Virus record (IMG/VR): IMGVR_UViG_3300037067_004563
Coordinates: 1-24,780 of that record
Length of the DNA stretch: 24,780 nt
Strand: one strand, 5' to 3'
From: a virus
In this document: piece by piece, positions 1 through 14,521 of the stretch
Layout: each line of letters begins with the position of its first letter
Position numbering within the stretch: position 1 is the stretch's first letter
Program-made: the position numbers and the translations under genes
Notes under the pieces: generated by a model
Seen by the model: the letters and a program-made list of their open reading frames with translations, nothing else
Databases searched by the model: none
What the model was told of the DNA's origin: nothing

Positions 1-326
1 CTATCATAAACCAACTTAGACCCCCACAAGAATTTATGAATACAACCAATAAACAAGGAGCTTGGTTCATGACAGTGAATTACATTTGCATTATAGCACA
101 GACTACTTGCAAGAGCCATGGCACAGTTAGGTATATGATCTTTCATAGATATTTTCCCATCAAAGCCCCTTATTAACACGCCGTTATTATCTACATCCCC
201 ACAATTGCAAGATTTATCTATTGCTATAACTGTTACATTATGCTCTTTTGATAGTGTAACAGCCTCTTTATAATAAATCCTATGATCATGCACACCGTGC
301 ACGGTAGATAACATTAACACTCTCAT
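1..326 (-). CDS. GT4-family glycosyltransferase, N-terminal domain (truncated by window edge; not in ORF track)
   Basis: Manual translation: MRVLMLSTVHGVHDHRIYYKEAVTLSKEHNVTVIA...ANVIHCHEPSSLFIG...GSKLVYD. Shows GT-B N-terminal motifs (D-x-RI..KEA..L, VIHCHEP, KLVYD). ATG overlaps the TGA of the upstream gene (ATGA). Confidence 0.8.
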   Translation of the reverse strand, partial: MRVLMLSTVHGVHDHRIYYKEAVTLSKEHNVTVIAIDKSCNCGDVDNNGVLIRGFDGKISMKDHIPNCAMALASSLCYNANVIHCHEPSSLFIGCIHKFLWGSKLVYD

Positions 327-649
327 AATTTAGCCTCCAGATCATCTAATCTTTTATTCAACCTCTCAAACTCCGTTTTTATAGGACTGTTATGTTTCCA
401 TGCCTGCTTATTCGAGTATTGAGACAGTGAAGGGTATATTATAGAATAGTAAGCAGTCCACCATGCAAGGGCACAACATACAACTATACACATTCCAAGA
501 TAAAAGGGGATGATCCCTCTTAAAAACCTATCATAGAGCAGCGTCCAAACACCAATAAAATTAAAAATATTAACGATAAACATAGACTGTGTTATCACCT
601 GGATAACTCCACCTATCTGCCCTTTATCAATATGAATTTGTTTTATCAT
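323..649 (-). CDS. Small membrane protein (2 TM helices plus C-terminal coiled coil)
   Basis: Two hydrophobic segments, tail TEFERLNKRLDDLEAKL; GGTGGTATAAG upstream at 654-662. Confidence 0.75.
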   Translation of the reverse strand: MIKQIHIDKGQIGGVIQVITQSMFIVNIFNFIGVWTLLYDRFLRGIIPFYLGMCIVVCCALAWWTAYYSIIYPSLSQYSNKQAWKHNSPIKTEFERLNKRLDDLEAKL

Positions 650-773
650 TTCTTATACCACCTAATAACCTTATTATATATGTTCTTAATAGTATTTAAA
701 ACATGCTAAAAAAGCGTATTTTGAAAACGTATATATGGATACAAGTAATAGTATAGTTTGGAGATGAAAACAA

Positions 774-1043
774 ATGGTAGGAGAAACAACAGCTAGAAAG
801 AATCCTCAGAGCATGAGAGAACTCGAAGAAGAATTTCACAAGAGACTGCTGGAAGCAAAACAGAAGAAAGTAGACCTTGGAAAACAAATGCTTGAGCTTG
901 AGAAAATGTACTCTGCTGCTGAGGCAGAAGAAGACACATGGGATTCTGCTCTTTATTCGCTTCAAAATGTTGGCGTGTCCTCTGGACCTAAAAGCAGAAG
1001 AAGAAACGGTAAGAGTAATGAAGAAGAGGAAGGAGAGGATTAA
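774..1043 (+). CDS. Hypothetical coiled-coil protein with acidic/basic tail
   Basis: 89 aa, helical charged composition, GGAGATG SD-like site upstream. It is the only plus-strand gene in the left arm and is convergent with 1053..1199. Confidence 0.65.
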   Translation: MVGETTARKNPQSMRELEEEFHKRLLEAKQKKVDLGKQMLELEKMYSAAEAEEDTWDSALYSLQNVGVSSGPKSRRRNGKSNEEEEGED

Positions 1044-1052
1044 ACCTCTCTA

Positions 1053-1199
1053 TTACTTTCTTGTTTTAACTTTCCTGTTTGCAGCCTCAAAAGCTGCTTC
1101 TCTTTCTGCAATATCTTCTGCAGGAGGAATGTAAACATATCTTTTTGCTGTATGACTGTACGAATAATATTCTAATCCTGTTCTTGTTTCAGTTTCCAT
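1053..1199 (-). CDS. Hypothetical 48-aa protein (not in ORF track)
   Basis: METETRTGLEYYSYSHTAKRYVYIPPAEDIAEREAAFEAANRKVKTRK; AGGTGGTATAAATG initiation motif. Confidence 0.65.
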   Translation of the reverse strand: METETRTGLEYYSYSHTAKRYVYIPPAEDIAEREAAFEAANRKVKTRK

Positions 1200-1208
1200 T
1201 TATACCAC

Positions 1209-1571
1209 CTATTCTTTGAAATTTGGACATTTGGCTATCTTTATCTTTGAGAGCTTCGACAATGTAAAAACACACGTAGAGGTTATGACTGCTGTAGATA
1301 CTCCAACACCTACTAAAATTAGTGTATTATAAGTAGTAGGTTCAGAATCCAAGATAGTAGGCAACTCAAAAATTAATTCAACTGCAATACACGTTATAAT
1401 ACCTAGTATCATTGCACAAGTAGTAGATATACACAAAAAGCACACTATAGCAAGTATACCACAAGCTAATAGAGCAATTCCTGTTATTAAGTCAGTTGCT
1501 AAGACTCTGCACACATCTCCTAGTGTAATCTCTTTCTTATGCACAAACTTACATAGAAATTTATCTAGCAT
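1209..1571 (-). CDS. Membrane protein (about 3 TM)
   Basis: Long hydrophobic stretches; GGTGGTATAAATG start. Confidence 0.75.
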   Translation of the reverse strand: MLDKFLCKFVHKKEITLGDVCRVLATDLITGIALLACGILAIVCFLCISTTCAMILGIITCIAVELIFELPTILDSEPTTYNTLILVGVGVSTAVITSTCVFTLSKLSKIKIAKCPNFKE

Positions 1572-1590
1572 TTATACCACCAAACTTTAA

Positions 1591-1725
1591 TTATAAAAAA
1601 ATCGCTCCCATGATTAAACCGATTATAAAACACTCAGCATAATTAAAGAAGATATTTTTATAATCTTTAAACGACAGTAAAGAGCCATTCTTTGTGGGCA
1701 TTACTCCCAAATCGTTTGTTTCCAT
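1591..1725 (-). CDS. Hypothetical 44-aa protein with C-terminal hydrophobic helix (not in ORF track)
   Basis: METNDLGVMPTKNGSLLSFKDYKNIFFNYAECFIIGLIMGAIFL; AGGTGGTATAAATG start. Confidence 0.65.
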   Translation of the reverse strand: METNDLGVMPTKNGSLLSFKDYKNIFFNYAECFIIGLIMGAIFL

Positions 1726-1735
1726 TTATACCACC

Positions 1736-2053
1736 TTATACAGTTACTTTTATTAATGAGTTGTCAAACATTGCTGGAGCCCTGTGCAATTCTTTGTGGC
1801 ACTCTACACAGACAGGTATTATGTTTGCAATGTCGTTATTATGGAATATTCCTATTGGCTCTATATGGTGTAGAGTAAGTGAAACGTCTTTTCTTGACTG
1901 ACCACAAACAGCACAGCAATCACCATGAGCAGCATAAACAAGATCCCTGTGGGTCATAAAACCATTAAAAGCACCCTTACGACCTTGGGATTTTTTGCCC
2001 ATTGGCAACTTATCATTAGCAGGACGGTTATTAATGTAATTTATGTAGTGCAT
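1736..2053 (-). CDS. HNH endonuclease (start uncertain, may extend to 2134)
   Basis: CAVCG...LTLHHIEP...NNDIANIIPVCVECHKELH matches the zinc-binding HNH signature. Confidence 0.85.
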   Translation of the reverse strand: MHYINYINNRPANDKLPMGKKSQGRKGAFNGFMTHRDLVYAAHGDCCAVCGQSRKDVSLTLHHIEPIGIFHNNDIANIIPVCVECHKELHRAPAMFDNSLIKVTV

Positions 2054-2227
2054 ATGAACTTTATTTTTGCTCTTTCCTGCGTTCCATGCTTTTAGGAAAG
2101 CTTTAGATTCTTGCCAGGTTATTTGTTGTGTCGTTTCTTAATCCCCCTCATTTCCTATACAAAGTAATTCTTTTCAATGTATATAAAATCTTCGGAGGTA
2201 GAAAGAAAAGGTGTGTTTCCACACCTA

Positions 2228-2755
2228 TTAAATATTACAAATCTCACCCTCTGCGTAACCCTCGCAAGACTCATAATACTCATAATACTCATTTTTCTTT
2301 TCTTCTTCTGTCATAAGTGCTACTACAAATTCTTTCAATTTATCATCGTTTTCATCCCACCCTATAAGTTCCTGTAAATCCCAGTTTGAAAGATCAGACC
2401 AACTAAAATCTTCACCCTCAAAATACTTAGATATAGCCCTTTCAGTAGTTATTTTCTGTATGTAACTTCTTACTTTACTTACTCTCTCAGCTTCAAAAAT
2501 ATCTAGTATATCAAATGCATCTAAACCTCGCATAGCATTTGCTACTGAGCATGCTTCACAGCCATAATCAACTTCTACATCTCTAATAGCTGAGTCTAAA
2601 GATTTATAGCACATGCACATAACGACTTTTCCACAGTCACTACAAATAAACCTGTGCCTAAATACATTTTTGCATGTATCCCAATAAATTTTTGAATCTT
2701 CTATGTCTGTAAGCTCCCCATCTTCGTCATAATACTTTTTAACTTTCTGTAACAT
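2228..2755 (-). CDS. Hypothetical protein with Cys motifs (CSDCG, CMC, CEAC) and acidic C-terminus
   Basis: 175-aa ORF, AGGTGGTG SD, co-oriented in operon. Confidence 0.7.
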   Translation of the reverse strand: MLQKVKKYYDEDGELTDIEDSKIYWDTCKNVFRHRFICSDCGKVVMCMCYKSLDSAIRDVEVDYGCEACSVANAMRGLDAFDILDIFEAERVSKVRSYIQKITTERAISKYFEGEDFSWSDLSNWDLQELIGWDENDDKLKEFVVALMTEEEKKNEYYEYYESCEGYAEGEICNI

Positions 2756-2772
2756 GTTTTCACCACCTATAA

Positions 2773-3027
2773 TTAAACGCTTACCATCTCAAGCACTTTG
2801 TTTTCAAGAAGTTCAGTACTCTTAAAAATCTGCTCAACTGTATAGAAACAGTCATCCACCTGAAGCACAGGAGCGTTATTCGTGAAGACCTGGTTAAACC
2901 TGAGCTCTGCAAGATTTTCAGCTTCCTGCATGTCAAGAGATTCAAATGCTATACCATGAGCTTTGAAAAACTTTTTAAGTTTATTGCACTTCGGGCAAAC
3001 TTCTGTAGAATATACATTTACTATCAT
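2773..3027 (-). CDS. nrdH: NrdH/glutaredoxin-like redoxin (Methanosarcina NrdH type)
   Basis: VYST..CPKC active site, LAELRFNQVFTNNAPVLQVDD (cis-Pro loop), thioredoxin-fold size of 84 aa; a class III RNR is encoded in the same arm. Confidence 0.8.
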   Translation of the reverse strand: MIVNVYSTEVCPKCNKLKKFFKAHGIAFESLDMQEAENLAELRFNQVFTNNAPVLQVDDCFYTVEQIFKSTELLENKVLEMVSV

Positions 3028-3162
3028 TTAATCCACCTCACCAGTGTAAATAGCTTCTTCTAGCTTATAAAACACATAATCAATATCAGACTCAAACTCT
3101 AAGTAAGCTTTTGCAGCAGCTATAAGATTTTCCCACGCAGTATTTTTGTTCTCGTTTATCAT
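3028..3162 (-). CDS. Hypothetical 44-aa protein (not in ORF track)
   Basis: MINENKNTAWENLIAAAKAYLEFESDIDYVFYKLEEAIYTGEVD; GAGGTG SD; TAA directly abuts the nrdH ATG. Confidence 0.65.
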   Translation of the reverse strand: MINENKNTAWENLIAAAKAYLEFESDIDYVFYKLEEAIYTGEVD

Positions 3163-3175
3163 TTCAAACACCTCT

Positions 3176-3337
3176 TTACTCGTCATACCCCTGTATAATC
3201 AATAATCCAATATCCCTATCAACATTGCCGCTTGAGGCAACCTCAGCCGACATAACACCATTAACAGACATGCAGGTAAATCCTGCAGTCGTTTCAAATT
3301 GCAATAGATCACCGTAAGGACTTACCTGCTGTATCAC
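3176..3337 (-). CDS. Hypothetical 53-aa protein, GTG start (not in ORF track)
   Basis: MIQQVSPYGDLLQFETTAGFTCMSVNGVMSAEVASSGNVDRDIGLLIIQGYDE; AGGTGAT SD; fills the operon gap. Confidence 0.55.
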   Translation of the reverse strand: MIQQVSPYGDLLQFETTAGFTCMSVNGVMSAEVASSGNVDRDIGLLIIQGYDE

Positions 3338-3339
3338 TT

Positions 3340-3522
3340 TTAATCACCTTTTCTATAACTACTGTAAGTAATAGTCACTTCACTTTCGAACGCGAATACC
3401 TTTTCACAGTGGTGACATTGAAACTCATCATCACTCTCACCACATTCCCAACTGTCTAAATGTTCATATCCACAGTATGGGCAAACAATAACCATTGTGT
3501 TTTTACAGTCAATTCTAGACAT
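3340..3522 (-). CDS. Small zinc-ribbon protein
   Basis: CPYCG...CHHC pair; TAAATG coupling to the upstream ORF. Confidence 0.75.
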   Translation of the reverse strand: MSRIDCKNTMVIVCPYCGYEHLDSWECGESDDEFQCHHCEKVFAFESEVTITYSSYRKGD

Positions 3523-3696
3523 TTATTCCAACCTCCTGATAGCGTCTTCAAGTTCACTTATCTCCTTTTCCCACCTTTCAACACAAGATTTGTCATCATC
3601 TTTGTAGCACCTTTCAGATTCAGAATCTGCAACCCACTCAACATTTGATTTAAGAAGATCAAGCTCCTCTCTAAGAATTTTTATAGCATATGACAT
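3523..3696 (-). CDS. Hypothetical 57-aa helical protein (not in ORF track)
   Basis: MSYAIKILREELDLLKSNVEWVADSESERCYKDDDKSCVERWEKEISELEDAIRRLE; TAAATG junctions at both ends. Confidence 0.65.
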   Translation of the reverse strand: MSYAIKILREELDLLKSNVEWVADSESERCYKDDDKSCVERWEKEISELEDAIRRLE

Positions 3697-3816
3697 TTAA
3701 TCCTTCCTGAAAACTTCTTCTTTAATTTTATCTGCTCCGTTAACGTTCCCATTCATAAGCTGTTCATAATACCCTGTGAGTGACAGGCTAAAAATTTTCT
3801 CATCCATCATTGCCAT
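3697..3816 (-). CDS. Hypothetical 39-aa protein (not in ORF track)
   Basis: MAMMDEKIFSLSLTGYYEQLMNGNVNGADKIKEEVFRKD; GGTGGTATAA upstream at 3821-3829. Confidence 0.6.
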   Translation of the reverse strand: MAMMDEKIFSLSLTGYYEQLMNGNVNGADKIKEEVFRKD

Positions 3817-3874
3817 TGTTTATACCACCGTCTTAATTTCTATACTCTACCTACAACTTAATACTATTTAACAG

Positions 3875-4033
3875 TTATGCTATACAAAGTAATTTAATCC
3901 GTTTCCCACATCTCACACAGTAAGCACAAGTGCCTCTATAGTTCCTAAAAACGTCAATACGCCTGTTAAAGCGTGTGAGTGTAAATTCAGTACACCCACA
4001 ATTACATACAATAGGTTTATGCTCTGCCTTCAC
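3875..4033 (-). CDS. Small Cys-rich zinc-ribbon protein, GTG start (not in ORF track)
   Basis: MKAEHKPIVCNCGCTEF...CAYCVRCGKRIKLLCIA; GTGA overlap with the helicase stop. Confidence 0.65.
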   Translation of the reverse strand: MKAEHKPIVCNCGCTEFTLTRFNRRIDVFRNYRGTCAYCVRCGKRIKLLCIA

Positions 4034-5640
4034 ACAATCGCCTCAATAAACCAACTTCTAAAATACTCTCTGTGTTTTCTGTAAAACGCTGTCCATTCCG
4101 GTTCTGTGATTATCGTATTTGTTATTTTTTTATCGTTTCGGTTTACTCTTCCATACTGCTGCATTACCTCATTAGCAGCTTCTACATATTCCCATTCTTT
4201 ACCCTGATACTTCCATTTTGCACGGGTTAAGTGGTCTGTAGGATTCTGCCGCTTAACATATGTAATTACATTATTTAGTATGTCAGCTTCGGGTAAATCA
4301 ATACCGCGCCCCATATTCACAGCAATAAGTATCTGTGTTTTATTCCTTGCTCTTTTAAATCTGTCTATTGCGTCACCGCGTAATACTGCACCCTCAATAC
4401 TTGCCATAGTACTTTCTCTCGATTGCACAATAGGCTTTATCTTGCCGTGACTTACTCTATATATTTCAGATCCTAGTCTTTCAGCAATTGAGTAAGAGGG
4501 CACATGCACAATAGTCTTGCCTGGCAGAAGAGTATCTGAAGGTTCACTAAGCATTTTTGCTAGTTTAGGTATTGTCTCATCTCTGTTTTTCATTGTTAAG
4601 GACCCCACAGGAACAAACTTAAAAGGTCTTACTTCCTTTGGAAACGGACTTTTAACCTCTATGAACTCCCACCCTTCAAGCTTTTGAGGGGTTGCGCTCA
4701 TTAATACTACTATTCTGTTTTCTGTGTCAAGTGCTTCATCAAGGAACCTTTCAATTGAAACAGGCTCAAAAGGTGTTGTTTTGCCGTTATCATCTGACAC
4801 AATATATTTATTTCCTTCTTTTATATCGGTAAGTAATCTTTCTATTCTATCAATCTTATCGGTAAGTCCTCTTCTATGTCTTATGTTTTCAAGTGTTTTA
4901 TCAAGACTTTCAAGCTCATAGGTATAAGCTTCTTTTTTATCCTGCAGGCACATTTCATAATCTGCAAAGTTATCAAAATGCCAGTAGTCGTCTATCACAA
5001 GTTTCCTGAACATTCTAATAAATGGTTCCATGTAGTCGCACTCGTCCACAATAACCACTTCAGGAGAGTTTGTTACACCCATTTGCAATAAAGTGAAATT
5101 ACTGTTACCTATCATGTTTTTCTTGAAAGCTCCAAACGCTTGTTTATAACTGCAATACTTACAAGGACAGGCTTCAGCGTCAGGTCTACTGCAATTATCA
5201 CATTCGCGTTCGTCAAACATTTTTAATTTGCTTCTTGAATCCATTGCCTCTTTATAACTCATTGTGCATATGCCTGCTGCACAAAAGCCACTATCACAAG
5301 AAACCTTTTCACCTTTTATACTTCTCATTGCAGCACACTCATAATGCTTTTTTCCAGTGAGAGATAAAAGAGGAAATTTATGGTCTCCTTCAAACTCTTT
5401 GTACTGATCCACAAGAGTATTGAGAGGCGATGTTATCAAAGTAGGCAACCCTTTTGAGGCTGCCAGGTTAGCGATACCTTTTGCAATACCGGACTTTCCG
5501 GCACCAGTGGGAGCACAAATAATAAATTTACGCTTTCCCTCAGACAACTTTTGCTCAAACCATTCTAAAACCTCGATCTGTTGAGGTCTTGGAGTGTTTA
5601 TTTTTGCTGTCTGTGGGAAATAGTTTAAGATAGTCATCAT
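4030..5640 (-). CDS. SF2 helicase, DinG/XPD (Rad3)-like with Cys-rich insert
   Basis: Q-motif PRPQQ, Walker A APTGAGKS, DECD, MSATP, VHVPSY, GRGIDLP, QQYGRVNR; Cys cluster after motif Ia as in Fe-S helicases. Confidence 0.85.
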   Translation of the reverse strand: MMTILNYFPQTAKINTPRPQQIEVLEWFEQKLSEGKRKFIICAPTGAGKSGIAKGIANLAASKGLPTLITSPLNTLVDQYKEFEGDHKFPLLSLTGKKHYECAAMRSIKGEKVSCDSGFCAAGICTMSYKEAMDSRSKLKMFDERECDNCSRPDAEACPCKYCSYKQAFGAFKKNMIGNSNFTLLQMGVTNSPEVVIVDECDYMEPFIRMFRKLVIDDYWHFDNFADYEMCLQDKKEAYTYELESLDKTLENIRHRRGLTDKIDRIERLLTDIKEGNKYIVSDDNGKTTPFEPVSIERFLDEALDTENRIVVLMSATPQKLEGWEFIEVKSPFPKEVRPFKFVPVGSLTMKNRDETIPKLAKMLSEPSDTLLPGKTIVHVPSYSIAERLGSEIYRVSHGKIKPIVQSRESTMASIEGAVLRGDAIDRFKRARNKTQILIAVNMGRGIDLPEADILNNVITYVKRQNPTDHLTRAKWKYQGKEWEYVEAANEVMQQYGRVNRNDKKITNTIITEPEWTAFYRKHREYFRSWFIEAIV

Positions 5641-5819
5641 CGCATCTCGGAGAATAGTTCCTCATACTTTTTGTACTCTTCAGTCATACGCTCTAAATCA
5701 TTTTTAGCATCAAATAGTGCATTTTTATCTTTCTGTGTGCAAAAGCCTCTGCACTTTTCCTCAAGTGCAAAGATAGCTTTTTCCTTCTGTCTAATATCTC
5801 TCTGTCTAACAAAGCCCAT
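5637..5819 (-). CDS. Hypothetical 60-aa charged protein
   Basis: GGTGGTATAAATG start; ATGA overlap with the helicase. Confidence 0.7.
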   Translation of the reverse strand: MGFVRQRDIRQKEKAIFALEEKCRGFCTQKDKNALFDAKNDLERMTEEYKKYEELFSEMR

Positions 5820-6026
5820 TTATACCACCAGTTCATAATGTTTTATAACATAAATTAAGAATAATAGATTAGTTACAGTGATTGAGTAAGTTATACTTAT
5901 TAATAATAATGTTTGAAGTGTGTATCCGTTCATTAGAACGCTTATTAGTGCGTAAACTTCTATAGGAAATTCAAATAAAACTATCAAATAAAAAGATAGT
6001 TTTACACACGCTTCTACAATTGTCAT
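5820..6026 (-). CDS. Small membrane protein (2 TM)
   Basis: Hydrophobic; GGTGGTATTATG start; ends GTG GTA TAA in the next gene's SD. Confidence 0.7.
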   Translation of the reverse strand: MTIVEACVKLSFYLIVLFEFPIEVYALISVLMNGYTLQTLLLISITYSITVTNLLFLIYVIKHYELVV

Positions 6027-6038
6027 AATACCACCAAC

Positions 6039-6371
6039 TCACACTTCATCAATCTTAAGCCATTTTGCAAGATTTTCAAACACATTTATTTTTTTTAATA
6101 AAATCCATACTATTCCAATTAATGTATAGATTGCCCATATGTAGAATCTAGTATGGTCAACAAAATCTACACCGCCATATATAAACTGTGTATTGAACAT
6201 TGTTAACATAAATATACCACAGTAAAACAACATAGGTACTAGAATATCAGCTACATGGTAAACAAAATAACCTACATACCTAAGCACTCTAATAATACCT
6301 CTGCCAACAAGGTTATCAATTTCGGCATCTGATACTTTAACACTTGTAATTATACTTTCTTCCGTTTCCAT
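6039..6371 (-). CDS. Membrane protein (2 TM)
   Basis: Two hydrophobic helices; GGTGGTATAAATG start. Confidence 0.75.
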   Translation of the reverse strand: METEESIITSVKVSDAEIDNLVGRGIIRVLRYVGYFVYHVADILVPMLFYCGIFMLTMFNTQFIYGGVDFVDHTRFYIWAIYTLIGIVWILLKKINVFENLAKWLKIDEV

Positions 6372-6389
6372 TTATACCACCACCAAAAT

Positions 6390-6626
6390 TTAATAATCAC
6401 ATGTAACAAAATCGAAATCGTCTTCTTCATCTGCAACTTTCAGCATACAAGGCTCAGGAAGTTCTTTATACTGCTTGACCAGCCATGCTACAGGAATTAA
6501 TGTTACCAGTGCAAGAATTACAGGCATGTTGCATAGGTATAGTACTGTTTCAACTGCAATACCAACAAGCGTAACACCTATAATTATATTAGGAATATTT
6601 TCTCTAGTCAGTTTATCGTTTATCAT
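6390..6626 (-). CDS. Small membrane protein (2 TM, acidic tail); start revised to ATG 6626
   Basis: MINDKLTRENIPNIIIGVTLVGIAV...; the track's GTG at 6671 lies inside the upstream Cys-rich ORF. Confidence 0.65.
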   Translation of the reverse strand: MINDKLTRENIPNIIIGVTLVGIAVETVLYLCNMPVILALVTLIPVAWLVKQYKELPEPCMLKVADEEDDFDFVTCDY

Positions 6627-6630
6627 ACTC

Positions 6631-6756
6631 TTACCGTTTATCATACTCTCCACACTCCTTATACTTTCCACTTACAATAGATCCATATCCGTGTATTTCA
6701 CAAGTACAAACACTTCTATCATACTTCTTACATGTTGAACAGTCTTTCCAGGTCAT
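6631..6756 (-). CDS. 41-aa Cys-rich protein (not in ORF track)
   Basis: MTWKDCSTCKKYDRSVCTCEIHGYGSIVSGKYKECGEYDKR; ATGA overlap with the MazG stop. Confidence 0.65.
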   Translation of the reverse strand: MTWKDCSTCKKYDRSVCTCEIHGYGSIVSGKYKECGEYDKR

Positions 6757-7025
6757 TCTTCCTCCTCATAACCAACTAATTCAGCTAGTCTATCAAGCTT
6801 AAAAGCTCTCCAGCCTTCTACTCTTTCACCCTTATTAAAAAGCAGCTTCATCTGCTCAAGCATTATTTCACAGTCTGCTATTTCCTCACACACATTATTC
6901 GGCTTGCCTCTTTTGTACTTGCAGAGTGCCTGGATAAGTTCAGAGCACTCTTCAATACACATGTCAATTTGACTTTCTGCCCCGTTTACACGTAGGACTT
7001 CTTTATACAGGTCTTGATCTGCCAT
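6753..7025 (-). CDS. mazG: MazG-like nucleoside-triphosphate pyrophosphohydrolase
   Basis: EECSELIQA...EEIADCEIML matches the EExxE...EExxD all-alpha NTP-PPase signature. Confidence 0.85.
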   Translation of the reverse strand: MADQDLYKEVLRVNGAESQIDMCIEECSELIQALCKYKRGKPNNVCEEIADCEIMLEQMKLLFNKGERVEGWRAFKLDRLAELVGYEEEE

Positions 7026-7026
7026 T

Positions 7027-7164
7027 TTATCCCTGCTTACCTACACTGCAGGTATTAGTGTATAATACCCTTTTGTTAAAAAACTCAGACTTTGCCTCTC
7101 TGCATACGAAAACAACACCTTCAGAACACCTAAAAGCTTTTCTACAATTTGCGCATGTACACAT
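7027..7164 (-). CDS. 45-aa Cys-rich protein (not in ORF track)
   Basis: MCTCANCRKAFRCSEGVVFVCREAKSEFFNKRVLYTNTCSVGKQG; GAGGTGGTATAAAATG start. Confidence 0.6.
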   Translation of the reverse strand: MCTCANCRKAFRCSEGVVFVCREAKSEFFNKRVLYTNTCSVGKQG

Positions 7165-7255
7165 TTTATACCACCTCAAATCTTTTCTGTACTTAAATTC
7201 CTGGCATTTCAGTCCTACATTTCTTGCATTTTATGTCAATTCTCATAAGAAATAA

Positions 7256-7429
7256 TTAATTTTTTATAACAATGTTGTCAAGCTTGGTTAAAAACTCTAC
7301 TAAGAAAGTATAATCCGTGTTGGTGTCTGGAGTTTCTATGTAAGTCTTTCTTAGTGTTCTTCTCAATTTTGCCATGTCACTCTCTGTAAGTCCACTGATA
7401 CAGTAAGTTTTAATTTTAGTAAAGTCCAT
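7256..7429 (-). CDS. Hypothetical 57-aa protein (not in ORF track)
   Basis: MDFTKIKTYCISGLTESDMAKLRRTLRK...; perfect AGGTGATATAAATG SD, first gene after a TATA box. Confidence 0.7.
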   Translation of the reverse strand: MDFTKIKTYCISGLTESDMAKLRRTLRKTYIETPDTNTDYTFLVEFLTKLDNIVIKN

Positions 7430-7479
7430 TTATATCACCTCATTTAGCTTAACTTACATTCTTACCTATGTGTTGTATC

Positions 7480-7493
7480 TATATAAACTTTTT
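7480..7493 (-). promoter_or_regulatory. Archaeal BRE/TATA promoter (AAAAAG TTTATATA)
   Basis: Consensus TTTATATA with A-rich BRE about 50 nt upstream of the 7429 start. A second TTTATATA lies at 7553-7560. Confidence 0.65.
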
Positions 7494-7505
7494 GTCTGAG
7501 ACTTA

Positions 7506-7534
7506 AACAGACTAAAAATTTATTTTAGTCTGTT
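7506..7534. repeat. 12-bp perfect inverted repeat AACAGACTAAAA-N5-TTTTAGTCTGTT (operator or terminator)
   Basis: Read directly; lies between the nrdD stop and the next promoter. Confidence 0.8.
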
Positions 7535-7587
7535 ATTCATAATGAAAGGGTCTATATAAAGAACCGTTCATTACAAACGAAGGCTAT

Positions 7588-9810
7588 TTAAATCTCTACT
7601 CTTTTCCTGTCCTTAAGCTCCTGGCGTTTGCCAGCGTTCCAACCTTCTACAGCCTGGAGATAACCAGTAATCCTTGACAAGTGCTGCACTTTATCAGACC
7701 CACACTTAGGACATTTGTCATGCAACCCGTTGCTTACATACCCGCCATTTGTGCAAACTGTCATGTCTCTAGTGAAGGCAAAGTACCCAACCTGAGTATT
7801 CTTAGCCAGTTGCATGGCGAAATCCATCAGTCCTTCAGGTCTTGAGCTGCCCTCACCTAACCAGATATGCAGAATATTCCCACCATCTACCACAGGGAAG
7901 AAGGTATGCTCATAGCTTATTCTCTCAGGCAGCGTTATATTTGCGTTTACTGCCGTGTGTGTTCCGTTTGTGTAATAAATTGGTAGGTCCTTTGTCTGAT
8001 CTATCTGTTGTAAGGCTGCCTCAAGATCCCCTTTTATCACAGTTGCCGCTTTGTCTCTGTACTCTGTGTGTAAGAGGTCACTGACAGCAAACCTTTGTGC
8101 TGTTGTCTCTGCAGGTGTGCGCGCAAGAGCAATAGTTATACCATTTTCTTTTGAGAGCTCCTGAGCGTACAACTTCATCTCAAACATTGCCCTAATTGCC
8201 AATTTGTAAGCTTCCTTACTTTCATGGATTTGTTTGCCTGTGTGATACTGGACCATCTCATTAATTCCTATTACTCCAATAGTGTACACAAGACTATCAA
8301 AATCTACTGCCATGGAACCTATTTCTCCAGTGTTAGGGTCTCTAGGATGCTGTGAGGCGAAAGGAATCCTACCCTTTACAATTAGGTTATCCATCCATTT
8401 TCGTTTAACCTTGAAGATCTCAATGGCGTTATCCATAAGAGTTCTCAACCCTTTGAATAATTTTTCATCGTTGTGTTCTGCTTCATATGCTACCCTGGGG
8501 CAGTTTAAAGACATTACCATCCATGATCCCATAGAGAAATGAACACCGTTTCTGAAGTACATTTTATCATCGAAATGTTCATCATCTGCTGGATTTGCTG
8601 AAAACGAGTACGCGCAACACTGGTAGCAGCTCACCCCGTTACCCGCACCTCTATATTCAGGAATCTGATTATCAAAGTAAGGAGTACCAAACTTTGCAGC
8701 CAGTTCAAAGGATTTTAGATAAAGTTCATGGTATGTAGGTAATTCAGGATGTGCTTTATTAAACTCTTCTCTTTCATTCATAAAGTCTGGCTCAACTGAT
8801 ATTTCAGGCTTTGGGAAACTAAAAGGCTTTCCTACTGCGTCACCTTCAAGCATAACATTCATAAGAGCTTTAAAGCCGAGTCTTACCTCTCTTTCAAATT
8901 CTCCGTAAGTCCTTAAGGGTGCCTGAACACCATTACATACTTTACCACGATACACCACAGGTTTATCTTTCCAGAGTGTTGGAACACCTGGCGAAAGTTG
9001 CACAGAGCTGAAGACAGTTTGTCCACCCCTCGAAGCTAGCATCTGTGTCATTTCGTAAACAAACAACTGCATAAGCTGTTCTATTTCCTTCTCTGTTTTC
9101 CCTTCCCAATAAGGTGCCATGAATGTAAGGAAATTATAGAAACCCTGCCCGCCTGCAAAATTACTCTGTGCAGATCCCAAGATTTTAGTGGCGTGAAGCA
9201 TCGCAACCTCAGCGTTCTTTGCAGGTTTTGCTATACTTGTTTGCATACCTATGCCATCTGCAATGAAACCATAATAGAAGAAAAACCTTAAATCGTGGTC
9301 CATACAGAAAGAGCGTGTGCCGAAATATTCGAGATCGTGAACGTGACACATACCATCTAAATGCGAGTTCGCTAGCTTTTCAGGTAATAGCAGTAAATTC
9401 TGCTCTTTGCTCATTTTGTCGGCTTTTCTTTTGTGGGATGTCTCCGCATTACTTATTTGATTAGCGTTATCATTTGCCTCAAAACCATACCCTGAGTCAA
9501 TCTCGTAAGCGTCATACACAGAGGCACCTACCCTGGTCATAATGTTACGCCATTCTGCCTTACCTTCTTCCAGCAGTACAGAGTTTACAACTTCTCTGAT
9601 AAGTGGACCTGAAACCTGCTTAATATTCAATTTTAAAATTAAACCCTCTGCTTTCTGTGCAACTGCCTGAGCTTCTTCTATAGTTGCAGCAGGTTTGTTA
9701 TAAAATATCTCACTCAGTTTAGTTTCTTTTACTATCTGATTTACAATTGTTTGTCTGTCCCATGGCATTATAAACCCGTCTGTGTTTTTCACAGTAATAT
9801 TATTTATCAT
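7588..9810 (-). CDS. nrdD: Anaerobic (class III) ribonucleoside-triphosphate reductase, archaeal type with ATP cone; start revised to ATG 9810
   Basis: N-terminal ATP cone, HVHDLEYF..RSFC, YQCCAY, TPAETTAQRFA, C-terminal CPKCG and glycyl-radical loop SRITGYLQ..GWN.GK..E..DR. AGGTGGT SD and TAATG overlap support the ATG at 9810. Confidence 0.95.
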   Translation of the reverse strand: MINNITVKNTDGFIMPWDRQTIVNQIVKETKLSEIFYNKPAATIEEAQAVAQKAEGLILKLNIKQVSGPLIREVVNSVLLEEGKAEWRNIMTRVGASVYDAYEIDSGYGFEANDNANQISNAETSHKRKADKMSKEQNLLLLPEKLANSHLDGMCHVHDLEYFGTRSFCMDHDLRFFFYYGFIADGIGMQTSIAKPAKNAEVAMLHATKILGSAQSNFAGGQGFYNFLTFMAPYWEGKTEKEIEQLMQLFVYEMTQMLASRGGQTVFSSVQLSPGVPTLWKDKPVVYRGKVCNGVQAPLRTYGEFEREVRLGFKALMNVMLEGDAVGKPFSFPKPEISVEPDFMNEREEFNKAHPELPTYHELYLKSFELAAKFGTPYFDNQIPEYRGAGNGVSCYQCCAYSFSANPADDEHFDDKMYFRNGVHFSMGSWMVMSLNCPRVAYEAEHNDEKLFKGLRTLMDNAIEIFKVKRKWMDNLIVKGRIPFASQHPRDPNTGEIGSMAVDFDSLVYTIGVIGINEMVQYHTGKQIHESKEAYKLAIRAMFEMKLYAQELSKENGITIALARTPAETTAQRFAVSDLLHTEYRDKAATVIKGDLEAALQQIDQTKDLPIYYTNGTHTAVNANITLPERISYEHTFFPVVDGGNILHIWLGEGSSRPEGLMDFAMQLAKNTQVGYFAFTRDMTVCTNGGYVSNGLHDKCPKCGSDKVQHLSRITGYLQAVEGWNAGKRQELKDRKRVEI

Positions 9811-10019
9811 TATAACCACCTGTAGCCTGTTCCACCGTTAGAGTCTCTAACCTCTTCTATCAACCCTGCACTAAGCGCATCACTATACAACTTATCGTTA
9901 TGTGAGCACTTCCAAGCACACCCACCAATTGAACACGCCTCACAATTATTTGCGTGCATCATAGATTCACATTCTCTTAATGTCTCAGGATAATTTTTGT
10001 TTACCTGTACTTGTTTCAT
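9810..10019 (-). CDS. Hypothetical Cys-rich protein
   Basis: CEACSIGGCAWKC; TGGTGAG SD; its stop overlaps the nrdD start. Confidence 0.65.
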   Translation of the reverse strand: MKQVQVNKNYPETLRECESMMHANNCEACSIGGCAWKCSHNDKLYSDALSAGLIEEVRDSNGGTGYRWL

Positions 10020-10023
10020 TTTC

Positions 10024-10269
10024 TCACCATTCTATATAATTAATAAAATGTCTTGAATATGCTTCTCCTTGATCGTCAATTACACTAGTAGACAACCCTT
10101 GTACATCTGCACTCTTTGCCCACTTAACACGAACATTAAACCAGTTTTGATATACGCAAAAGCTTTTAGCCCACTCAACTGCAACTTTCTTTGCTTCCTT
10201 TACGTTATTGGCAACAACTGAAATACGCCAGCAATCAAACTCTTCCACATTATAGCCTTTTAGTACCAT
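10024..10269 (-). CDS. Hypothetical protein
   Basis: 81 aa, TAAATG coupling to the TS homologue. Confidence 0.7.
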   Translation of the reverse strand: MVLKGYNVEEFDCWRISVVANNVKEAKKVAVEWAKSFCVYQNWFNVRVKWAKSADVQGLSTSVIDDQGEAYSRHFINYIEW

Positions 10270-10890
10270 TTACACCCTCTCCCATGCGTTAAATTTGTCT
10301 GAATCACCTATTTTAAGGTGTGCGTTAATTACATACCTGCAATACTTTCCTATACCTCTGCCAAGCCTGAAAGCAAAGTATCTCTGCAACTGCCTAAATC
10401 CAAAGTCATCTGAAGGACTCGCCTGCCCACAGTCATTACTTCTGAAGATAGTAGTCATGCAGACTAAGCCGTCTATAATTTCAATCTGCAATCCTACACA
10501 ACATGGCACTTCTTTTGTGGACCCTACGTGTTCAGGACGGAATAAAGGAATATAGGCTCTTCTTGTGTTAGGATTCTGTCGAAGGATTTTAATAGTTTTT
10601 TCTATGAGTCCTTCCAGCCACATTAACCACCCATAACCATAATCAAAGCCAAGCCCCCTAAGCCTAGCATGAGAAGGATAAATAAGACCTGCTGCAAAGT
10701 CATTATCTAGTCTTTCTGTAGTGCTGCCCATTGGTACATGAGCCATATCCTGTGAGTCACAAATAAAGTGTATATTATGGCAAAATATGCATGAATCGCC
10801 ATTCTGATCTTTAGTAAGCTCTCCGTTTTCTCTTATGTGTTTCACGCCTGAAGAGTGAATACCCGCTAAGGTTTTTTCTACTATTTCCAT
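10270..10890 (-). CDS. Thymidylate-synthase superfamily protein, archaeal ThyA-like, with Asp at the pyrimidine-specificity position (candidate dCMP methyl/hydroxymethylase)
   Basis: FDYGYG, NPNTRRA, EVPC130C, FR150SND, P-S-D161, NAH. Spacing C130-R150-D161 equals E. coli C146-R166-N177 and T4 gp42 C148...D179. Confidence 0.85.
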   Translation of the reverse strand: MEIVEKTLAGIHSSGVKHIRENGELTKDQNGDSCIFCHNIHFICDSQDMAHVPMGSTTERLDNDFAAGLIYPSHARLRGLGFDYGYGWLMWLEGLIEKTIKILRQNPNTRRAYIPLFRPEHVGSTKEVPCCVGLQIEIIDGLVCMTTIFRSNDCGQASPSDDFGFRQLQRYFAFRLGRGIGKYCRYVINAHLKIGDSDKFNAWERV

Positions 10891-10894
10891 GTTA

Positions 10895-11176
10895 TCAGTC
10901 CAGAAGATCCTTGAAGCTTAACCAGCCTTTTCTAATGCAAATTAGCACTAGATAACCAAGCAGGTCCACAACATCATTCTTTCTTAACTCTTCACTGTTC
11001 TTTATTCTGCTTAGTTTATCATCTATCCTGGCATAAAGCAAGTCTTCAGACTCACTCTTAGAAAATACATTCATAGGTTCTAATGCAGAATTACCATACT
11101 TTTCATTCTTCTTTTCTAGGAAATACGATAAGTTTTCACACACTAACATAATTTTCTCTGCTGTTTCCTCAGTCAT
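10895..11176 (-). CDS. DUF1599-like nucleotide-modification-associated, all-alpha (MazG-like) protein
   Basis: KKNEKYGNS...RIDDKLSRIKN...DVVDLLGYLVL pattern; 4 nt upstream of the TS homologue. Confidence 0.7.
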   Translation of the reverse strand: MTEETAEKIMLVCENLSYFLEKKNEKYGNSALEPMNVFSKSESEDLLYARIDDKLSRIKNSEELRKNDVVDLLGYLVLICIRKGWLSFKDLLD

Positions 11177-11177
11177 T

Positions 11178-11291
11178 TTACCACCTCAGTATAAATTTAA
11201 CATTACAGAAAGGGCATTTGATAAATAACCCTCCTATAGCTGTTTTCCTGAACTCACCACCACAGGACGGACAGGTTATAAGCTTGTAAAT
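11178..11291 (-). CDS. 37-aa zinc-ribbon protein with apparent ATT start (not in ORF track)
   Basis: (I)YKLITCPSCGGEFRKTAIGGLFIKCPFCNVKFILRW; GGTGATAAA then ATT; its stop sits in the next gene's GAGGTGGTAAAATG. Confidence 0.55.
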   Translation of the reverse strand: MYKLITCPSCGGEFRKTAIGGLFIKCPFCNVKFILRW

Positions 11292-11320
11292 TTTATCACC
11301 AAGACTAATAGACAGTAAAA

Positions 11321-11335
11321 GTATATAACATTTTT
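11321..11335 (-). promoter_or_regulatory. Archaeal BRE/TATA promoter (AAAAATG TTATATAC) for the Zn-ribbon/DUF1599/TS/nrdD operon
   Basis: TATA-like box about 30 nt upstream of the 11291 start. Confidence 0.5.
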
Positions 11336-11360
11336 GCTTCTGTTCAGGACAGTTTAAAAA

Positions 11361-11582
11361 TTAAAGTTTAGAGGGTTTTGATAGAGCATATCTTAGCAGC
11401 CCTACAACTGCAATGCATTCATACACAGAGAACAGTATAGCTGTGTCAATATCACCTAATACATATGCATGGTACAGCATCATAATATTCCCAAATACCC
11501 AAAGGACATTAGCTGTTACTGAGTGCCCGAAAGACACACAGAGCGCACCTGAAATACCTAGTATAACACCTAATGATAACAT
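11361..11582 (-). CDS. Small 3-TM membrane protein (possibly PnuC/SemiSWEET-like half-transporter)
   Basis: Three hydrophobic helices with G..C...G....N.LW..GN pattern; GGTGGTATAAATG start, TATA box at about 11614-11621. Transporter assignment is weak. Confidence 0.6.
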   Translation of the reverse strand: MLSLGVILGISGALCVSFGHSVTANVLWVFGNIMMLYHAYVLGDIDTAILFSVYECIAVVGLLRYALSKPSKL

Positions 11583-11622
11583 TTATACCACCATATAATA
11601 AGTACTCTAAAAATATATAAAG

Positions 11623-12474
11623 TTATTGTGAGTGTTCACCACTCTTTAAACTCTCAACTTTAGAGGGTTTATAATCCACATCATGCAGCACCCTCCACAA
11701 CATTTCCCCTGTCTTTTTCCCTATCTTTCCTTTCATCCACTTAAGATCATACCCTAACAACTCTGCAAAGGTCATATCAGGATTACCGCTTAACAATTTA
11801 TTCACAGTGTATAACTTAATCCCAGGCACTTGCATAAGCATTTTAAGCGTTAAATCTGCTGCACAAGGTTCTTTATACTCAAATGACTTATGCCCTGACT
11901 TAGCACAGTAATCTATCAAATTTTCTAAATTGATAGGAAAGTGTGCAAGTTTCTCAAATGTCCTGACGTGTACGCCTTGAGCTTCCCAGGTTGCAAGCCG
12001 TGACTGCATTAGGTCATATCTAAGTACGCTTTCACCTGCCCAGTTTTTGACATAATAGAAATTACCACTCTGTTCTATATCAATCCGTCCTTCCACAAAG
12101 AGCGCAACATCTTGAAACAGCTCTGCAGATTCCCATAACTTCCATGGGAGATCAGCGTGACTGCCAGCAAAATCATTTATGTGCTTATACTCTACTCCAA
12201 TATTCACAGGAAAGCCTCTATGCTCACCTGAAATTTGATAATCGCACCTGTCAAGTTTCCCTATTGCAACCTCCGCGCCTTTTTGTGAGAAGTGTTCATA
12301 AACACTATAAATCCGAGGTCTTTTCTTTGCAAGTTCTCTCTTCTCTTCGGCTGAATAGTCAGATATAAAGTAGGTGTCTTTTTTAATAGCTGTCTCAGTT
12401 TTATGATTGAGTTTTAATGCGCTCTGCTCTCTTGTGTCGCAAGTGATAAAGACACCTGGATACTCATTTGACAT
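11623..12474 (-). CDS. ERCC4/XPF-family structure-specific endonuclease with C-terminal HhH
   Basis: TCDTREQ, KLDRCDYQI, VEYKHINDF (ERKxxxD-like), LFVEG, QVPGIK HhH. Confidence 0.8.
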   Translation of the reverse strand: MSNEYPGVFITCDTREQSALKLNHKTETAIKKDTYFISDYSAEEKRELAKKRPRIYSVYEHFSQKGAEVAIGKLDRCDYQISGEHRGFPVNIGVEYKHINDFAGSHADLPWKLWESAELFQDVALFVEGRIDIEQSGNFYYVKNWAGESVLRYDLMQSRLATWEAQGVHVRTFEKLAHFPINLENLIDYCAKSGHKSFEYKEPCAADLTLKMLMQVPGIKLYTVNKLLSGNPDMTFAELLGYDLKWMKGKIGKKTGEMLWRVLHDVDYKPSKVESLKSGEHSQ

Positions 12475-12479
12475 TTATA

Positions 12480-12644
12480 TCACCATATAGCTACTATCTG
12501 TCCAATTTTATTATAAATCTCTTTAAAATAAAAAAGCTGTCTATCTGACAGCTCTACTTTCTCCATAGGAGTTCTACCAAACTTGCTATCTTCAAGTTCA
12601 TTTACTTTTAATAGAAGCCTATTTATTTCGTGAAGATCACACAT
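12480..12644 (-). CDS. Hypothetical 54-aa protein (not in ORF track)
   Basis: MCDLHEINRLLLKVNELEDSKFGRTPMEKVELSDRQLFYFKEIYNKIGQIVAIW; GAGGTGGTTTAAATG start. Confidence 0.65.
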   Translation of the reverse strand: MCDLHEINRLLLKVNELEDSKFGRTPMEKVELSDRQLFYFKEIYNKIGQIVAIW

Positions 12645-12654
12645 TTAAACCACC

Positions 12655-13440
12655 TCACATAATTACTTCCTCAACACTAACACCATATTCTCTAGGATTA
12701 AGCTTAACCTTAAGATACCCTATTTTCAAAGGTCTATACCCTGCCTGCTCTGGATAAGATACACCGCTTCCCTCTACGATCCCCTTTAAAAAGCTTCCTG
12801 TGTTACAAAAATACTGCGTCTTAAGTCCAAGGTGTCCGAATTTAGTCTGAAACATTCTCTGCTGGCTTGTATAGAATAAATCGTGTGAATGTCCTGCTGC
12901 GGCAATGTCGAAATCTATGTGTGATGCAAGTCCTTCAAGTGAATTAACTTTTCCACCTCTGAGCCTGCCTGCTGCATGCCCGTGAGTTGAATAAAGATTA
13001 TATGAAAACTTCTTTCCTCTTTTGCAGTATGACAGCCTGGAAAGTGCTGTATATTCTGAATAAGTTGTTTCAAGGTTCTCACAAAGATCTTTTACCATGT
13101 CTATGTGGCAGTATTTTGTAACTGACTGGTCATGGTTCCCTGAGTGAATCATAAGAATCTGGTCTGCAATGGGTTTAAGCAGTTTTTCTACACTCTTATA
13201 CTGCCTGCCTATCATATTGTCGCCTAAAAATTCAGGTGCAACAGTTCCCATGTCAAACCTTTTGTCTCTAGATGAAATACACTCGCACAGGTCACCAAGT
13301 ACAATTAAATTATACCCATTTTTTCTAACGTCTGAAACCATCTTTTTAAGTGCTACCATATCAGTATTTTTGTTGCCAACGTGAAAGTCAGAAGCAAGTA
13401 CAGTTGTCTCAGATTCAAGGTTAAACTCATTGCATATCAT
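12655..13440 (-). CDS. Calcineurin-like metallophosphoesterase
   Basis: SDFHVG, GDLCE, GNHD, THGH, GHSH: all five motifs present. Confidence 0.9.
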   Translation of the reverse strand: MICNEFNLESETTVLASDFHVGNKNTDMVALKKMVSDVRKNGYNLIVLGDLCECISSRDKRFDMGTVAPEFLGDNMIGRQYKSVEKLLKPIADQILMIHSGNHDQSVTKYCHIDMVKDLCENLETTYSEYTALSRLSYCKRGKKFSYNLYSTHGHAAGRLRGGKVNSLEGLASHIDFDIAAAGHSHDLFYTSQQRMFQTKFGHLGLKTQYFCNTGSFLKGIVEGSGVSYPEQAGYRPLKIGYLKVKLNPREYGVSVEEVIM

Positions 13441-13472
13441 TTATACCACCCACCTAAAATTTAAGAGCTGTA

Positions 13473-13922
13473 TTACAGCCCTTCCACCCCTGCAAGTTTC
13501 CACACATAAAAAGTAACTTCTCTAGGCTGCATTGTTTCAGCATCCAACTCTTTAGGATCAGGGATAAACGTTTTAGTCTCTACATTGAACGAGCACTCTT
13601 TTCCGCACAAATCTGGAGTGGTTGCAACCTCTGTGTAATCTGTGTTAAACTTCACTGCAACCTTAAATTTTTTAAATGACTCAAGGAACCTGGACATAGT
13701 ACTAAACTTTTTAGGCTCAAGAACACCCTTATTCTCCACCCACTTATCAAGCTTCATATCAAGTCTTAAAGATGGTTCCTCACCCTCAAAATTAATAACA
13801 AGATCTGTTCTAGTTCCACCACCGTATTTAGGAGCATCCTCAAGTATTATTTCAGATACTACCGCCTTGAAACTTTCTGTTCTCTTAAAAAACTTGTTCT
13901 GGAGAGGAACAACCTTTACCAT
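13473..13922 (-). CDS. Hypothetical beta-rich protein (possible viral SSB/OB fold); start revised to ATG 13922
   Basis: GAGGTGGTATAAGATG start; beta-strand pattern with aromatic residues. The SSB call is inference only. Confidence 0.6.
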   Translation of the reverse strand: MVKVVPLQNKFFKRTESFKAVVSEIILEDAPKYGGGTRTDLVINFEGEEPSLRLDMKLDKWVENKGVLEPKKFSTMSRFLESFKKFKVAVKFNTDYTEVATTPDLCGKECSFNVETKTFIPDPKELDAETMQPREVTFYVWKLAGVEGL

Positions 13923-13923
13923 C

Positions 13924-14465: not shown

Positions 14466-14521
14466 TTTCTACCTCTTATGATCTTTCATGTTAGATTTAG
14501 TTTATTTTATAAGTTTGCTCA

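Follow-up and report, generated by a model that had tools for sequence, protein, structure and literature searches.

Pre-replicative modification of cytosine by homologues of thymidylate synthase (TS) is well known in bacteriophages. In phage T4, the TS homologue gp42 works together with gp1, a deoxynucleoside monophosphate (dNMP) kinase, and gp56, a dCTPase, and in the RB69, DLP3 and HY126 AfhB systems the modified base is 5-hydroxycytosine, which is arabinosylated (PMC13326640; PDB 9iqc, 9iqu). MilA of Streptomyces rimofaciens (PDB 5jnh, 5b6d), a hydroxymethylase of cytidine monophosphate (CMP), belongs to an antibiotic pathway. The literature that we searched held no report of pre-replicative cytosine modification by TS homologues in a methanogen virus. 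Here we describe a TS homologue, predicted to act on deoxycytidine monophosphate (dCMP), which is encoded at positions 10270..10890 of the IMG/VR virus record IMGVR_UViG_3300037067_004563. This record, analysed in its entirety and called the window below, is linear, 24,780 bases long and estimated to be 42% complete. It is best explained as the replication and nucleotide-metabolism part of a double-stranded DNA virus of about 59 kb infecting Methanosarcina; a sister contig measures 59.7 kb.

We consider it probable that the viral TS homologue modifies C5 of dCMP. The wider reading, in which its product is phosphorylated and incorporated into viral DNA along the pathway set out below, is given a probability of about 0.5. 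Of an earlier sequence-only reading, which had proposed a dispersed cytosine hypermodification pathway in an archaeal virus, the cytosine-specific TS homologue is well supported, and the T-even-like glycosylated hypermodification is not supported.

Cytosine-type residues in a methanogen-type TS homologue

10270..10890, minus strand: TS-fold enzyme of 206 aa, methanogen-type ThyA lineage, predicted dCMP C5-hydroxymethylase (or methylase); Pfam Thymidylat_synt 32.4 bits, above threshold

The best full-length family model for this protein was TIGR03283, the methanogen-type ThyA (positions 5-194 of 201); the viral protein is likewise short and contains the motifs RSND, PC and RR. It fails membership of that family, as its score of 78.6 bits lies under the cut-off of 174.55 and Asp161 replaces the invariant Asn. 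An exhaustive search showed that its relatives form a small family with full-length members of 205-230 aa. The AlphaFold2 (AF2) model of the TS homologue had a predicted local distance difference test (pLDDT) score of 95.4, and its top Foldseek match was the CMP hydroxymethylase MilA (E 7e-16, TM-score 0.84). The dCMP hydroxylase AfhB of phage HY126 was also retrieved, and both MilA and AfhB ranked above true thymidylate synthases among the structural matches, with E values of 1e-13 to 7e-16 and TM-scores of 0.7-0.85 for the matches to MilA and TS. MilA was likewise the top solved enzyme by phmmer (E 3e-13), and the best full-length match of the family profile among solved structures was AfhB (9iqc/9iqu, E 9e-30).

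Residues were numbered from alignments of the viral TS homologue to solved TS and MilA, with E. coli TS as reference. C130 aligned with the catalytic C146 of E. coli, and R110, R111 and R150 with the phosphate-binding Arg pair and Arg166. D161 occupied the base-reading N177 position, which determines cytosine specificity. E127 aligned with L143 of TS and with Asp in MilA, and D153, within the RSND motif, retained the Asp of D169. R110 and S151 stood at the positions of K133 and A176 of MilA and formed the deoxyribose-type Arg/Ser pair (Arg126', Ser167). According to published work, N177D means dCMP specificity, L143D/E accompanies hydroxymethyl products and D169N marks the flavin-dependent 5-hydroxy-dCMP synthases (PMC13326640), and an Arg plus Ser pair means deoxyribose specificity (PMC5175136). 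Since N177D, the acidic residue at L143, the retained D169 and the Arg/Ser pair all fit these rules, we read the viral protein as a 5-hydroxymethyl-dCMP synthase; taken together, the residues predict a 5-hydroxymethyl- (or 5-methyl-) dCMP synthase and not the flavin-dependent 5-hydroxy-dCMP type. Thus, the Asp-type TS homologue claimed earlier is indeed present, with the TS fold, Asp161 and the complete set of residues that marks enzymes modifying C5 of dCMP specifically. The gene was under purifying selection, with a ratio of nonsynonymous to synonymous substitution rates (dN/dS) of 0.08-0.12.

Like T4 gp42, the viral protein combines the TS fold and catalytic Cys with Asp at N177, and the two enzymes also agree in the acidic nature of the L143 residue and in an Arg/Ser pair of the deoxyribose type. 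Unlike gp42, it is built on a short (~206 aa) methanogen-type ThyA scaffold and not on the bacterial type, and its cofactor is probably methanopterin instead of folate. It resembles MilA, its top single-sequence and Foldseek match, in which the N177 and L143 positions are both occupied by Asp, but differs from it in having Arg110 and Ser151 (deoxyribose type) where MilA has Lys133 and Ala176 (ribose); MilA is also longer by 100+ residues.

Comparison with cellular enzymes was made using housekeeping ThyA from 23 archaeal genomes, all of which scored over the TIGR03283 cut-off. The N177 position was occupied by Asp in 26/26 viral-type members and by Asn in 23/23 cellular archaeal ThyA. A single branch split the viral-type from the cellular proteins in a quick maximum-likelihood tree, with a support of 99 by the approximate likelihood ratio test (SH-aLRT). 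Twelve further columns switched together with the Asn-to-Asp change, including the equivalent of Tyr209, which became K, R or I. The catalytic core, consisting of R110, R111, P129, C130, R150, S151, N152 and H191, was common to both groups. A profile search of cellular genomes found no close relative of the TS homologue, the best matches being archaeal ThyA at 26-34% identity. The protein is best explained as belonging to a branch of the methanogen-type ThyA lineage that is particular to viruses and has exchanged the base-reading Asn for Asp.

Among the best matches in GenBank phages was a TS homologue of Enterococcus phage 9183 (L080, 28004-34535 of the record), 40% identical to the C-terminal half of the viral protein. 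The gene cluster around it encodes a thymidylate kinase, a dUTPase, and proteins resembling a nucleoside diphosphate (NDP)-sugar pyrophosphorylase and a nucleotide-sugar synthetase, and looks like a pyrimidine hypermodification cluster.

Host, nucleotide supply and the predicted pathway

Genes of the window lie on the minus strand from 1 to ~14.7 kb (arm 1-14731) and on the plus strand from ~15 kb, and the sign of the GC skew flips where the two arms meet. As had been claimed for a co-oriented arm, every gene of the proposed pathway except the polymerase is on the minus arm. On the plus arm are genes for ParA, a ParB-like protein and a fusion of a DnaG-type primase with a D5/DUF5906 helicase, together with the N-terminal part of a family A polymerase. 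The genes that bear on nucleotide supply and incorporation are the following.

2773..3027, minus strand: glutaredoxin/NrdH-like redoxin; PF00462 29.1 bits, conserved in L003, L044 and L045
6753..7025, minus strand: MazG-like nucleoside triphosphate pyrophosphohydrolase, 90 aa; PHROG_2245 E 2.4e-26
7588..9819, minus strand: NrdD, class III anaerobic ribonucleoside-triphosphate reductase; PF13597 517.8 bits, TIGR02487 581 bits
23814..24779, plus strand: family A DNA polymerase N-terminus (3'-5' exonuclease domain), cut by the contig end; PF01612 50.1 bits

The viral NrdD was 75-76% identical to the NrdD encoded on the chromosomes of Methanosarcina acetivorans, M. mazei and M. barkeri. When it was compared with 201 genomes of that phylum, five large genomes gave 74-76% identity and the rest ≤68%. 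The host is therefore almost certainly Methanosarcina, judging from this protein, which agrees with the archaeal origin that had been proposed for the virus. Megablast of the whole window against GenBank phages gave no match, and tblastn of the primase-helicase gave distant bacterial phage matches only. Two proteins from NCBI metagenome-assembled genomes (MAGs) labelled 'Clostridia bacterium' (P0168 and P0290) were 95% and 84% identical to the 93-aa protein encoded beside the TS gene, described below, and to NrdD; they probably come from viral contigs misbinned into a bacterial MAG.

Both parts of the deoxynucleotide supply system that had been read from the sequence, NrdD and the NrdH-like redoxin, are present, and the redoxin is the likely reductant for NrdD. 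The MazG-like protein scored 17.2 bits with Pfam MazG, under the cut-off of 22, and phmmer against PDB gave nothing. The assignment as a MazG pyrophosphatase nevertheless holds, given the PHROG_2245 match and the EExxE and ExxD metal-binding motifs, which are readable in the translation. Its gene had a dN/dS of 0.17-0.19 and homologues in L002, L004 and L003, and its product is a candidate for the step from deoxycytidine triphosphate (dCTP) to dCMP. The claim that the virus encodes its own polymerase is supported by the PolA exonuclease N-terminus at the right end of the window; in a sister virus, a 561-aa protein with exonuclease and PolA domains is followed by a MazG-like gene.

The 536-aa open reading frame (ORF) at 4030-5640 was considered as a PolA and rejected, as it encodes an XPD/DinG-like helicase. 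In sister virus L045 (14174-16024, 616 aa) this helicase has an N-terminal DnaJ fusion, and in L049 a 305-aa homologue of presenilin/signal-peptide-peptidase (PF06550, 14591-15508) is encoded between NrdD and the helicase. NrdD is free of inteins in the window (743 aa), and several sister viruses carry inteins in it (906-1154 aa), some with homing-endonuclease domains; the NrdD genes of two sister viruses are at 10718-13447 of L045 and 10761-13481 of L049.

We infer a pathway in which NrdD, with the NrdH-like redoxin, makes dCTP and the MazG-like pyrophosphatase could convert dCTP back to dCMP. The TS homologue would then bind dCMP, Cys130 would attack C6, and a methylene-pterin would donate its one-carbon unit to C5. 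Addition of water would give 5-hydroxymethyl-dCMP, and hydride transfer, giving 5-methyl-dCMP, appears less likely. An enzyme of the thymidylate-kinase family, which in sister viruses is encoded beside the TS gene and not in the window, would phosphorylate the product, and the viral PolA would incorporate the modified nucleotide. Methanogens use methanopterin in place of folate. From this and from the lineage of the enzyme, the one-carbon donor is probably the methylene-tetrahydromethanopterin or -sarcinapterin of the host, and not a folate. The set of genes is like that of T4 in having a nucleoside triphosphate (NTP) pyrophosphatase and its own polymerase, together with a dNMP-type kinase in sister viruses; unlike in T4, that kinase belongs to the Tmk family, and the window lacks it.

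The slot upstream of the TS gene and the glycosyltransferase cassette

10895..11176, minus strand: 93-aa three-helix protein, directly upstream of the TS gene; PHROG_1485 E 1.6e-11
3..326, minus strand: GT-B (GT4-like) glycosyltransferase (GT), N-terminal 108 aa, cut by the contig end; similarity to a sister-virus protein

The gene next to the TS gene had been called DUF1599-like. It is a real and conserved gene, with a dN/dS of 0.07 and 526 homologues of about 90 aa with no Pfam domain, and it does adjoin the TS gene. The DUF1599 label itself fared less well. PF07659 (DUF1599) gave no match to the protein at E≤10, none at E≤1 in 45 members of its family and none in a six-frame search of the window, and the label comes from ESM Atlas neighbours alone, among which one cluster carries PF07659 on 33% of its members and another is named 'nucleotide modification associated domain' (TM-score 0.83). 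The AF2 model (pLDDT 87.4) consisted of three helices. Compared with PDB it gave weak matches to all-alpha NTP pyrophosphatase/MazG-like folds (Z 5.7-6.2), Foldseek against PDB gave nothing at E≤0.001, and the profile of the 93-aa protein found nothing meaningful among solved structures; the top rows of VIA-align were generic helical hairpins. The protein is possibly nucleotide-binding and MazG-like. Its nearest homologues in cultured phages, those of Cellulophaga phi10:1 (51% identity) and of Microbacterium phages, are encoded among early genes with no TS nearby.

Six sister viruses, with TS homologues 72-98% identical to that of the window, have the same NrdD-TS block. The slot directly upstream of the TS gene is filled by the 93-aa gene in the window, L002, L004 and L044. 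In L049/L003 and in L045 it holds genes for a DUF4406 protein (nucleoside 2-deoxyribosyltransferase-like) and a Thymidylate_kin protein, the pair lying at 9043-10008 of L049, where the kinase gene takes up 9403-10008, and at 8792-9770 of L045. The 93-aa gene and this pair were mutually exclusive among the sister viruses seen. A distant Asp-type member, 39% identical, also has Thymidylate_kin two genes from its TS gene.

At the left end of the window, the ORF at 3-326 matched, at 42% identity, residues 1-110 of a 353-aa protein with Glyco_trans_1_4/Gtf3_C domains (PF13692/PF26337), which is encoded at the same map position in sister virus L045/L046. ESM Atlas neighbours of the fragment carry Glyco_transf_4. 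Pfam gave no match to the 108-aa fragment itself, and a search of viral contigs with it returned only a weak giant-virus match. The GT4 glycosyltransferase noted earlier can thus be kept as GT-B-like through its sister protein, with the reservation that what the window holds is a 108-aa fragment with no Pfam match of its own. In L046, the full-length GT (10001-11062) precedes genes for a 296-aa protein, a hexapeptide-repeat acetyltransferase, a 141-aa protein and an S-adenosylmethionine (SAM) methyltransferase; the 296-aa and 141-aa proteins had no Pfam or PHROG match.

The GT was found only in the window and in L045/L046; by count, 2 of ~6 sister viruses have it. L044 has kept the genes for the 296-aa protein, the Hexapep acetyltransferase and the methyltransferase, but lacks the GT, and L049, G001 and G002 gave no GT match. 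L074 is a complete 77.6-kb virus with direct terminal repeats, whose Asp-type TS (42% identical) adjoins an ERCC4 nuclease; searches of it for Glyco_trans_1_4 and for Thymidylate_kin found no match. Upstream of its TS homologue lies a 202-aa gene that was considered as a kinase, but it is not a recognisable one. Thus, the co-occurrence of GT with Asp-type TS for which the sequence-only reading had called does not hold. Because of this patchy presence, the GT cassette is a variable accessory sugar-tailoring module and not a fixed partner of the TS homologue. Location of the GT in a structural-protein module, which had been considered as a sign of action on virion proteins, was not observed either: in the sister viruses the cassette sits in the replication arm, between redoxin/HNH genes and DNA ligase, with no recognisable structural genes around it. 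Since RB69 and DLP3 have GT4-like enzymes that are proven to arabinosylate DNA, a role of the GT on DNA is possible by analogy, though unsupported here.

Restriction-site avoidance and rival explanations

Several observations weigh against the pathway as drawn. In the enzyme itself, residue 30 is Asn (DQNG) in the clade of the window, against a family consensus of Arg (DQRG), the first phosphate-binding Arg; this position probably corresponds to the phosphate-binding R21 of E. coli. Cellular archaeal ThyA also carry D, E or N at the L143 position, so that in this lineage the L143 rule cannot tell a hydroxymethyl from a methyl product. The Thymidylate_kin search found no dNMP kinase in the window, which bears out the earlier statement, nor in the sister record G001 (57% complete), and the sister contig whose gene arrangement matches that of the window had no recognisable one in the 20-kb stretches that were read. 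The search beyond the window that had been proposed thus succeeded for the relatives (L049/L003 and L045), but not for this virus; the kinase travels with the enzyme in sister viruses only.

GGCC occurs 0 times in the window, against 31.7±5.6 in dinucleotide-preserving shuffles, and 0 times against 111 expected in a 109-kb virus pool made up of the window and four sister stretches (L049, L046, L081 and L082). Synonymous sites have diverged strongly, up to saturation, among these viruses, so the absence of GGCC is actively maintained. In the same pool, the ratio of observed to expected counts was <0.8 in 21/42 palindromes containing C or G, and in 0/12 AT-only palindromes. Chromosomes of Methanosarcina-like genomes showed mild avoidance of GGCC (376 vs 608 in 240 kb). 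Among coliphages, those that have a dCMP hydroxymethylase were found to avoid 2.4% of host sites, and relatives without one 55.8% (Rusinov 2018, PMC6286503). Unlike the T4-like phages with 5-hydroxymethylcytosine, the present virus shows strong restriction-site avoidance, and by this analogy its group behaves like the unprotected kind of phage. The GGCC purge and the depletion of C/G palindromes argue against fully shielded cytosines. With GGCC and many C/G palindromes purged from the virus group, cytosine replacement is probably partial, or of a kind that does not block host type II enzymes. Possible ways of reconciling the enzyme with the avoidance are partial replacement, a modification ignored by the nucleases, a GGCC nuclease encoded by the virus, or a role of the enzyme that does not shield DNA. 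A search of five Methanosarcina-like genomes for NgoPII- or HaeIII-type GGCC endonucleases found nothing, but it was made without a positive control and is hence uninformative.

The same data bear on the T-even-style pathway of the sequence-only reading, in which the MazG-like or the 93-aa protein would remove dCTP, all C would become 5-hydroxymethylcytosine, and the GT4-like enzyme would glycosylate the DNA and shield the genome from nucleases. All the types of parts are present among these viruses, and a TS homologue, a Tmk-like kinase, a MazG-like dCTPase and a GT4-like GT-B are the very parts of the proven cytosine glycosylation pathways of RB69 and DLP3 (PMC13326640); the position of the sister GT cassette in the replication arm also suits this pathway. 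However, the GT is limited to the window and L045/L046 and is lacking in the complete virus with an Asp-type TS, its cassette partners, an acetyltransferase and a SAM methyltransferase, are typical of glycan tailoring, the window has no dedicated dNMP kinase, and elimination of GGCC with broad depletion of C/G palindromes is the opposite of what shielded genomes show. No genes for NDP-sugar synthesis were recognised here, unlike in the RB69/DLP3 pathway. The viral transferase is GT4-like and presumably not of the T4 alpha/beta-glucosyltransferase families. With a patchy GT, no kinase in the window and avoidance of restriction sites, glycosylated full replacement of cytosine is quite unlikely.

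Avoidance of restriction sites fits unmodified DNA, and thereby an ordinary supply module in which NrdD, the redoxin, the TS homologue (with Tmk in relatives) and MazG would boost and clean the deoxynucleotide pool without DNA modification; the TS homologue would either still make thymidine monophosphate (dTMP), or yield a C5-substituted dCMP that fails to accumulate in DNA. TS, Tmk and ribonucleotide reductase are a common viral arrangement, and true DUF1599 proteins accompany ThyX and dUTPase in archaeal (Asgard) viruses, which has been interpreted as thymidylate supply. The virus is also more AT-rich than host-like genomes (GC 0.38 vs 0.41-0.44), so that extra dTTP would be useful. Still, the supply module, its variants included, appears unlikely: the viral clade invariably has Asp at N177, a residue found there in 0/23 cellular archaeal ThyA, the characterised natural Asp-type enzymes (PMC13326640, PMC5175136) all act on cytosine nucleotides, and neither the window nor its relatives showed a deaminase for the conversion of 5-methyl-dCMP to dTMP. 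Highly improbable, by comparison, is a flavin-dependent 5-hydroxy-dCMP synthase of the HY126 AfhB/RB69 gp48 type, whose 5-hydroxycytosine would anchor glycosylation. AfhB is the best full-length solved match of the family profile and a GT-B transferase is present; but D169N is missing, the window having RSND with Asp153 where AfhB has RSQN, and the reaction needs O2 in the virus of a strict anaerobe. Since the virus relies on the anaerobic NrdD, O2-dependent hydroxylation is implausible. We rejected this reading on the retained D169 and the O2 dependence, even though the short dCMP-type TS homologue, the Tmk-like/dNMP kinase, the MazG-like dCTPase and the GT4-like GT-B are shared with the RB69/DLP3/HY126 systems.

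We therefore retain the C5-directed dCMP enzyme and the pathway built on it, C5 modification of cytosine being likely from the residues of the enzyme. If this is true, modified-base warfare would extend to archaeal viruses, a second cofactor chemistry would exist for hydroxymethylation of DNA bases, and a clean natural Asn-to-Asp specificity switch would be available for study (26 vs 23 sequences). An enzyme of this type and extreme avoidance of restriction sites are unexpected together, and their combination bears on whether modification and avoidance are alternative or combined strategies. A bolder version is quite unlikely. In it, cytosine in Methanosarcina viruses gives way to a C5-substituted base, the product of a methanopterin-dependent offshoot of archaeal ThyA, and some lineages, this one included, add sugars by means of the GT4-like cassette. 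No earlier pathway of cytosine hypermodification would then be known from an archaeal virus, and the one-carbon modification of a DNA base would for the first time be independent of folate. In that case, the GGCC purge would suggest a host nuclease that is insensitive to the modification.

The dipeptide Trp-Pro occurred 0 times in 5611 residues of the window ORFs. A 20.6-kb stretch of L074 showed no palindrome avoidance, with GGCC occurring 15 times against 13.4 expected. Besides GGCC, the strongly depleted sites were GGATCC, ACTAGT, GCATGC, GAGCTC and GATATC.

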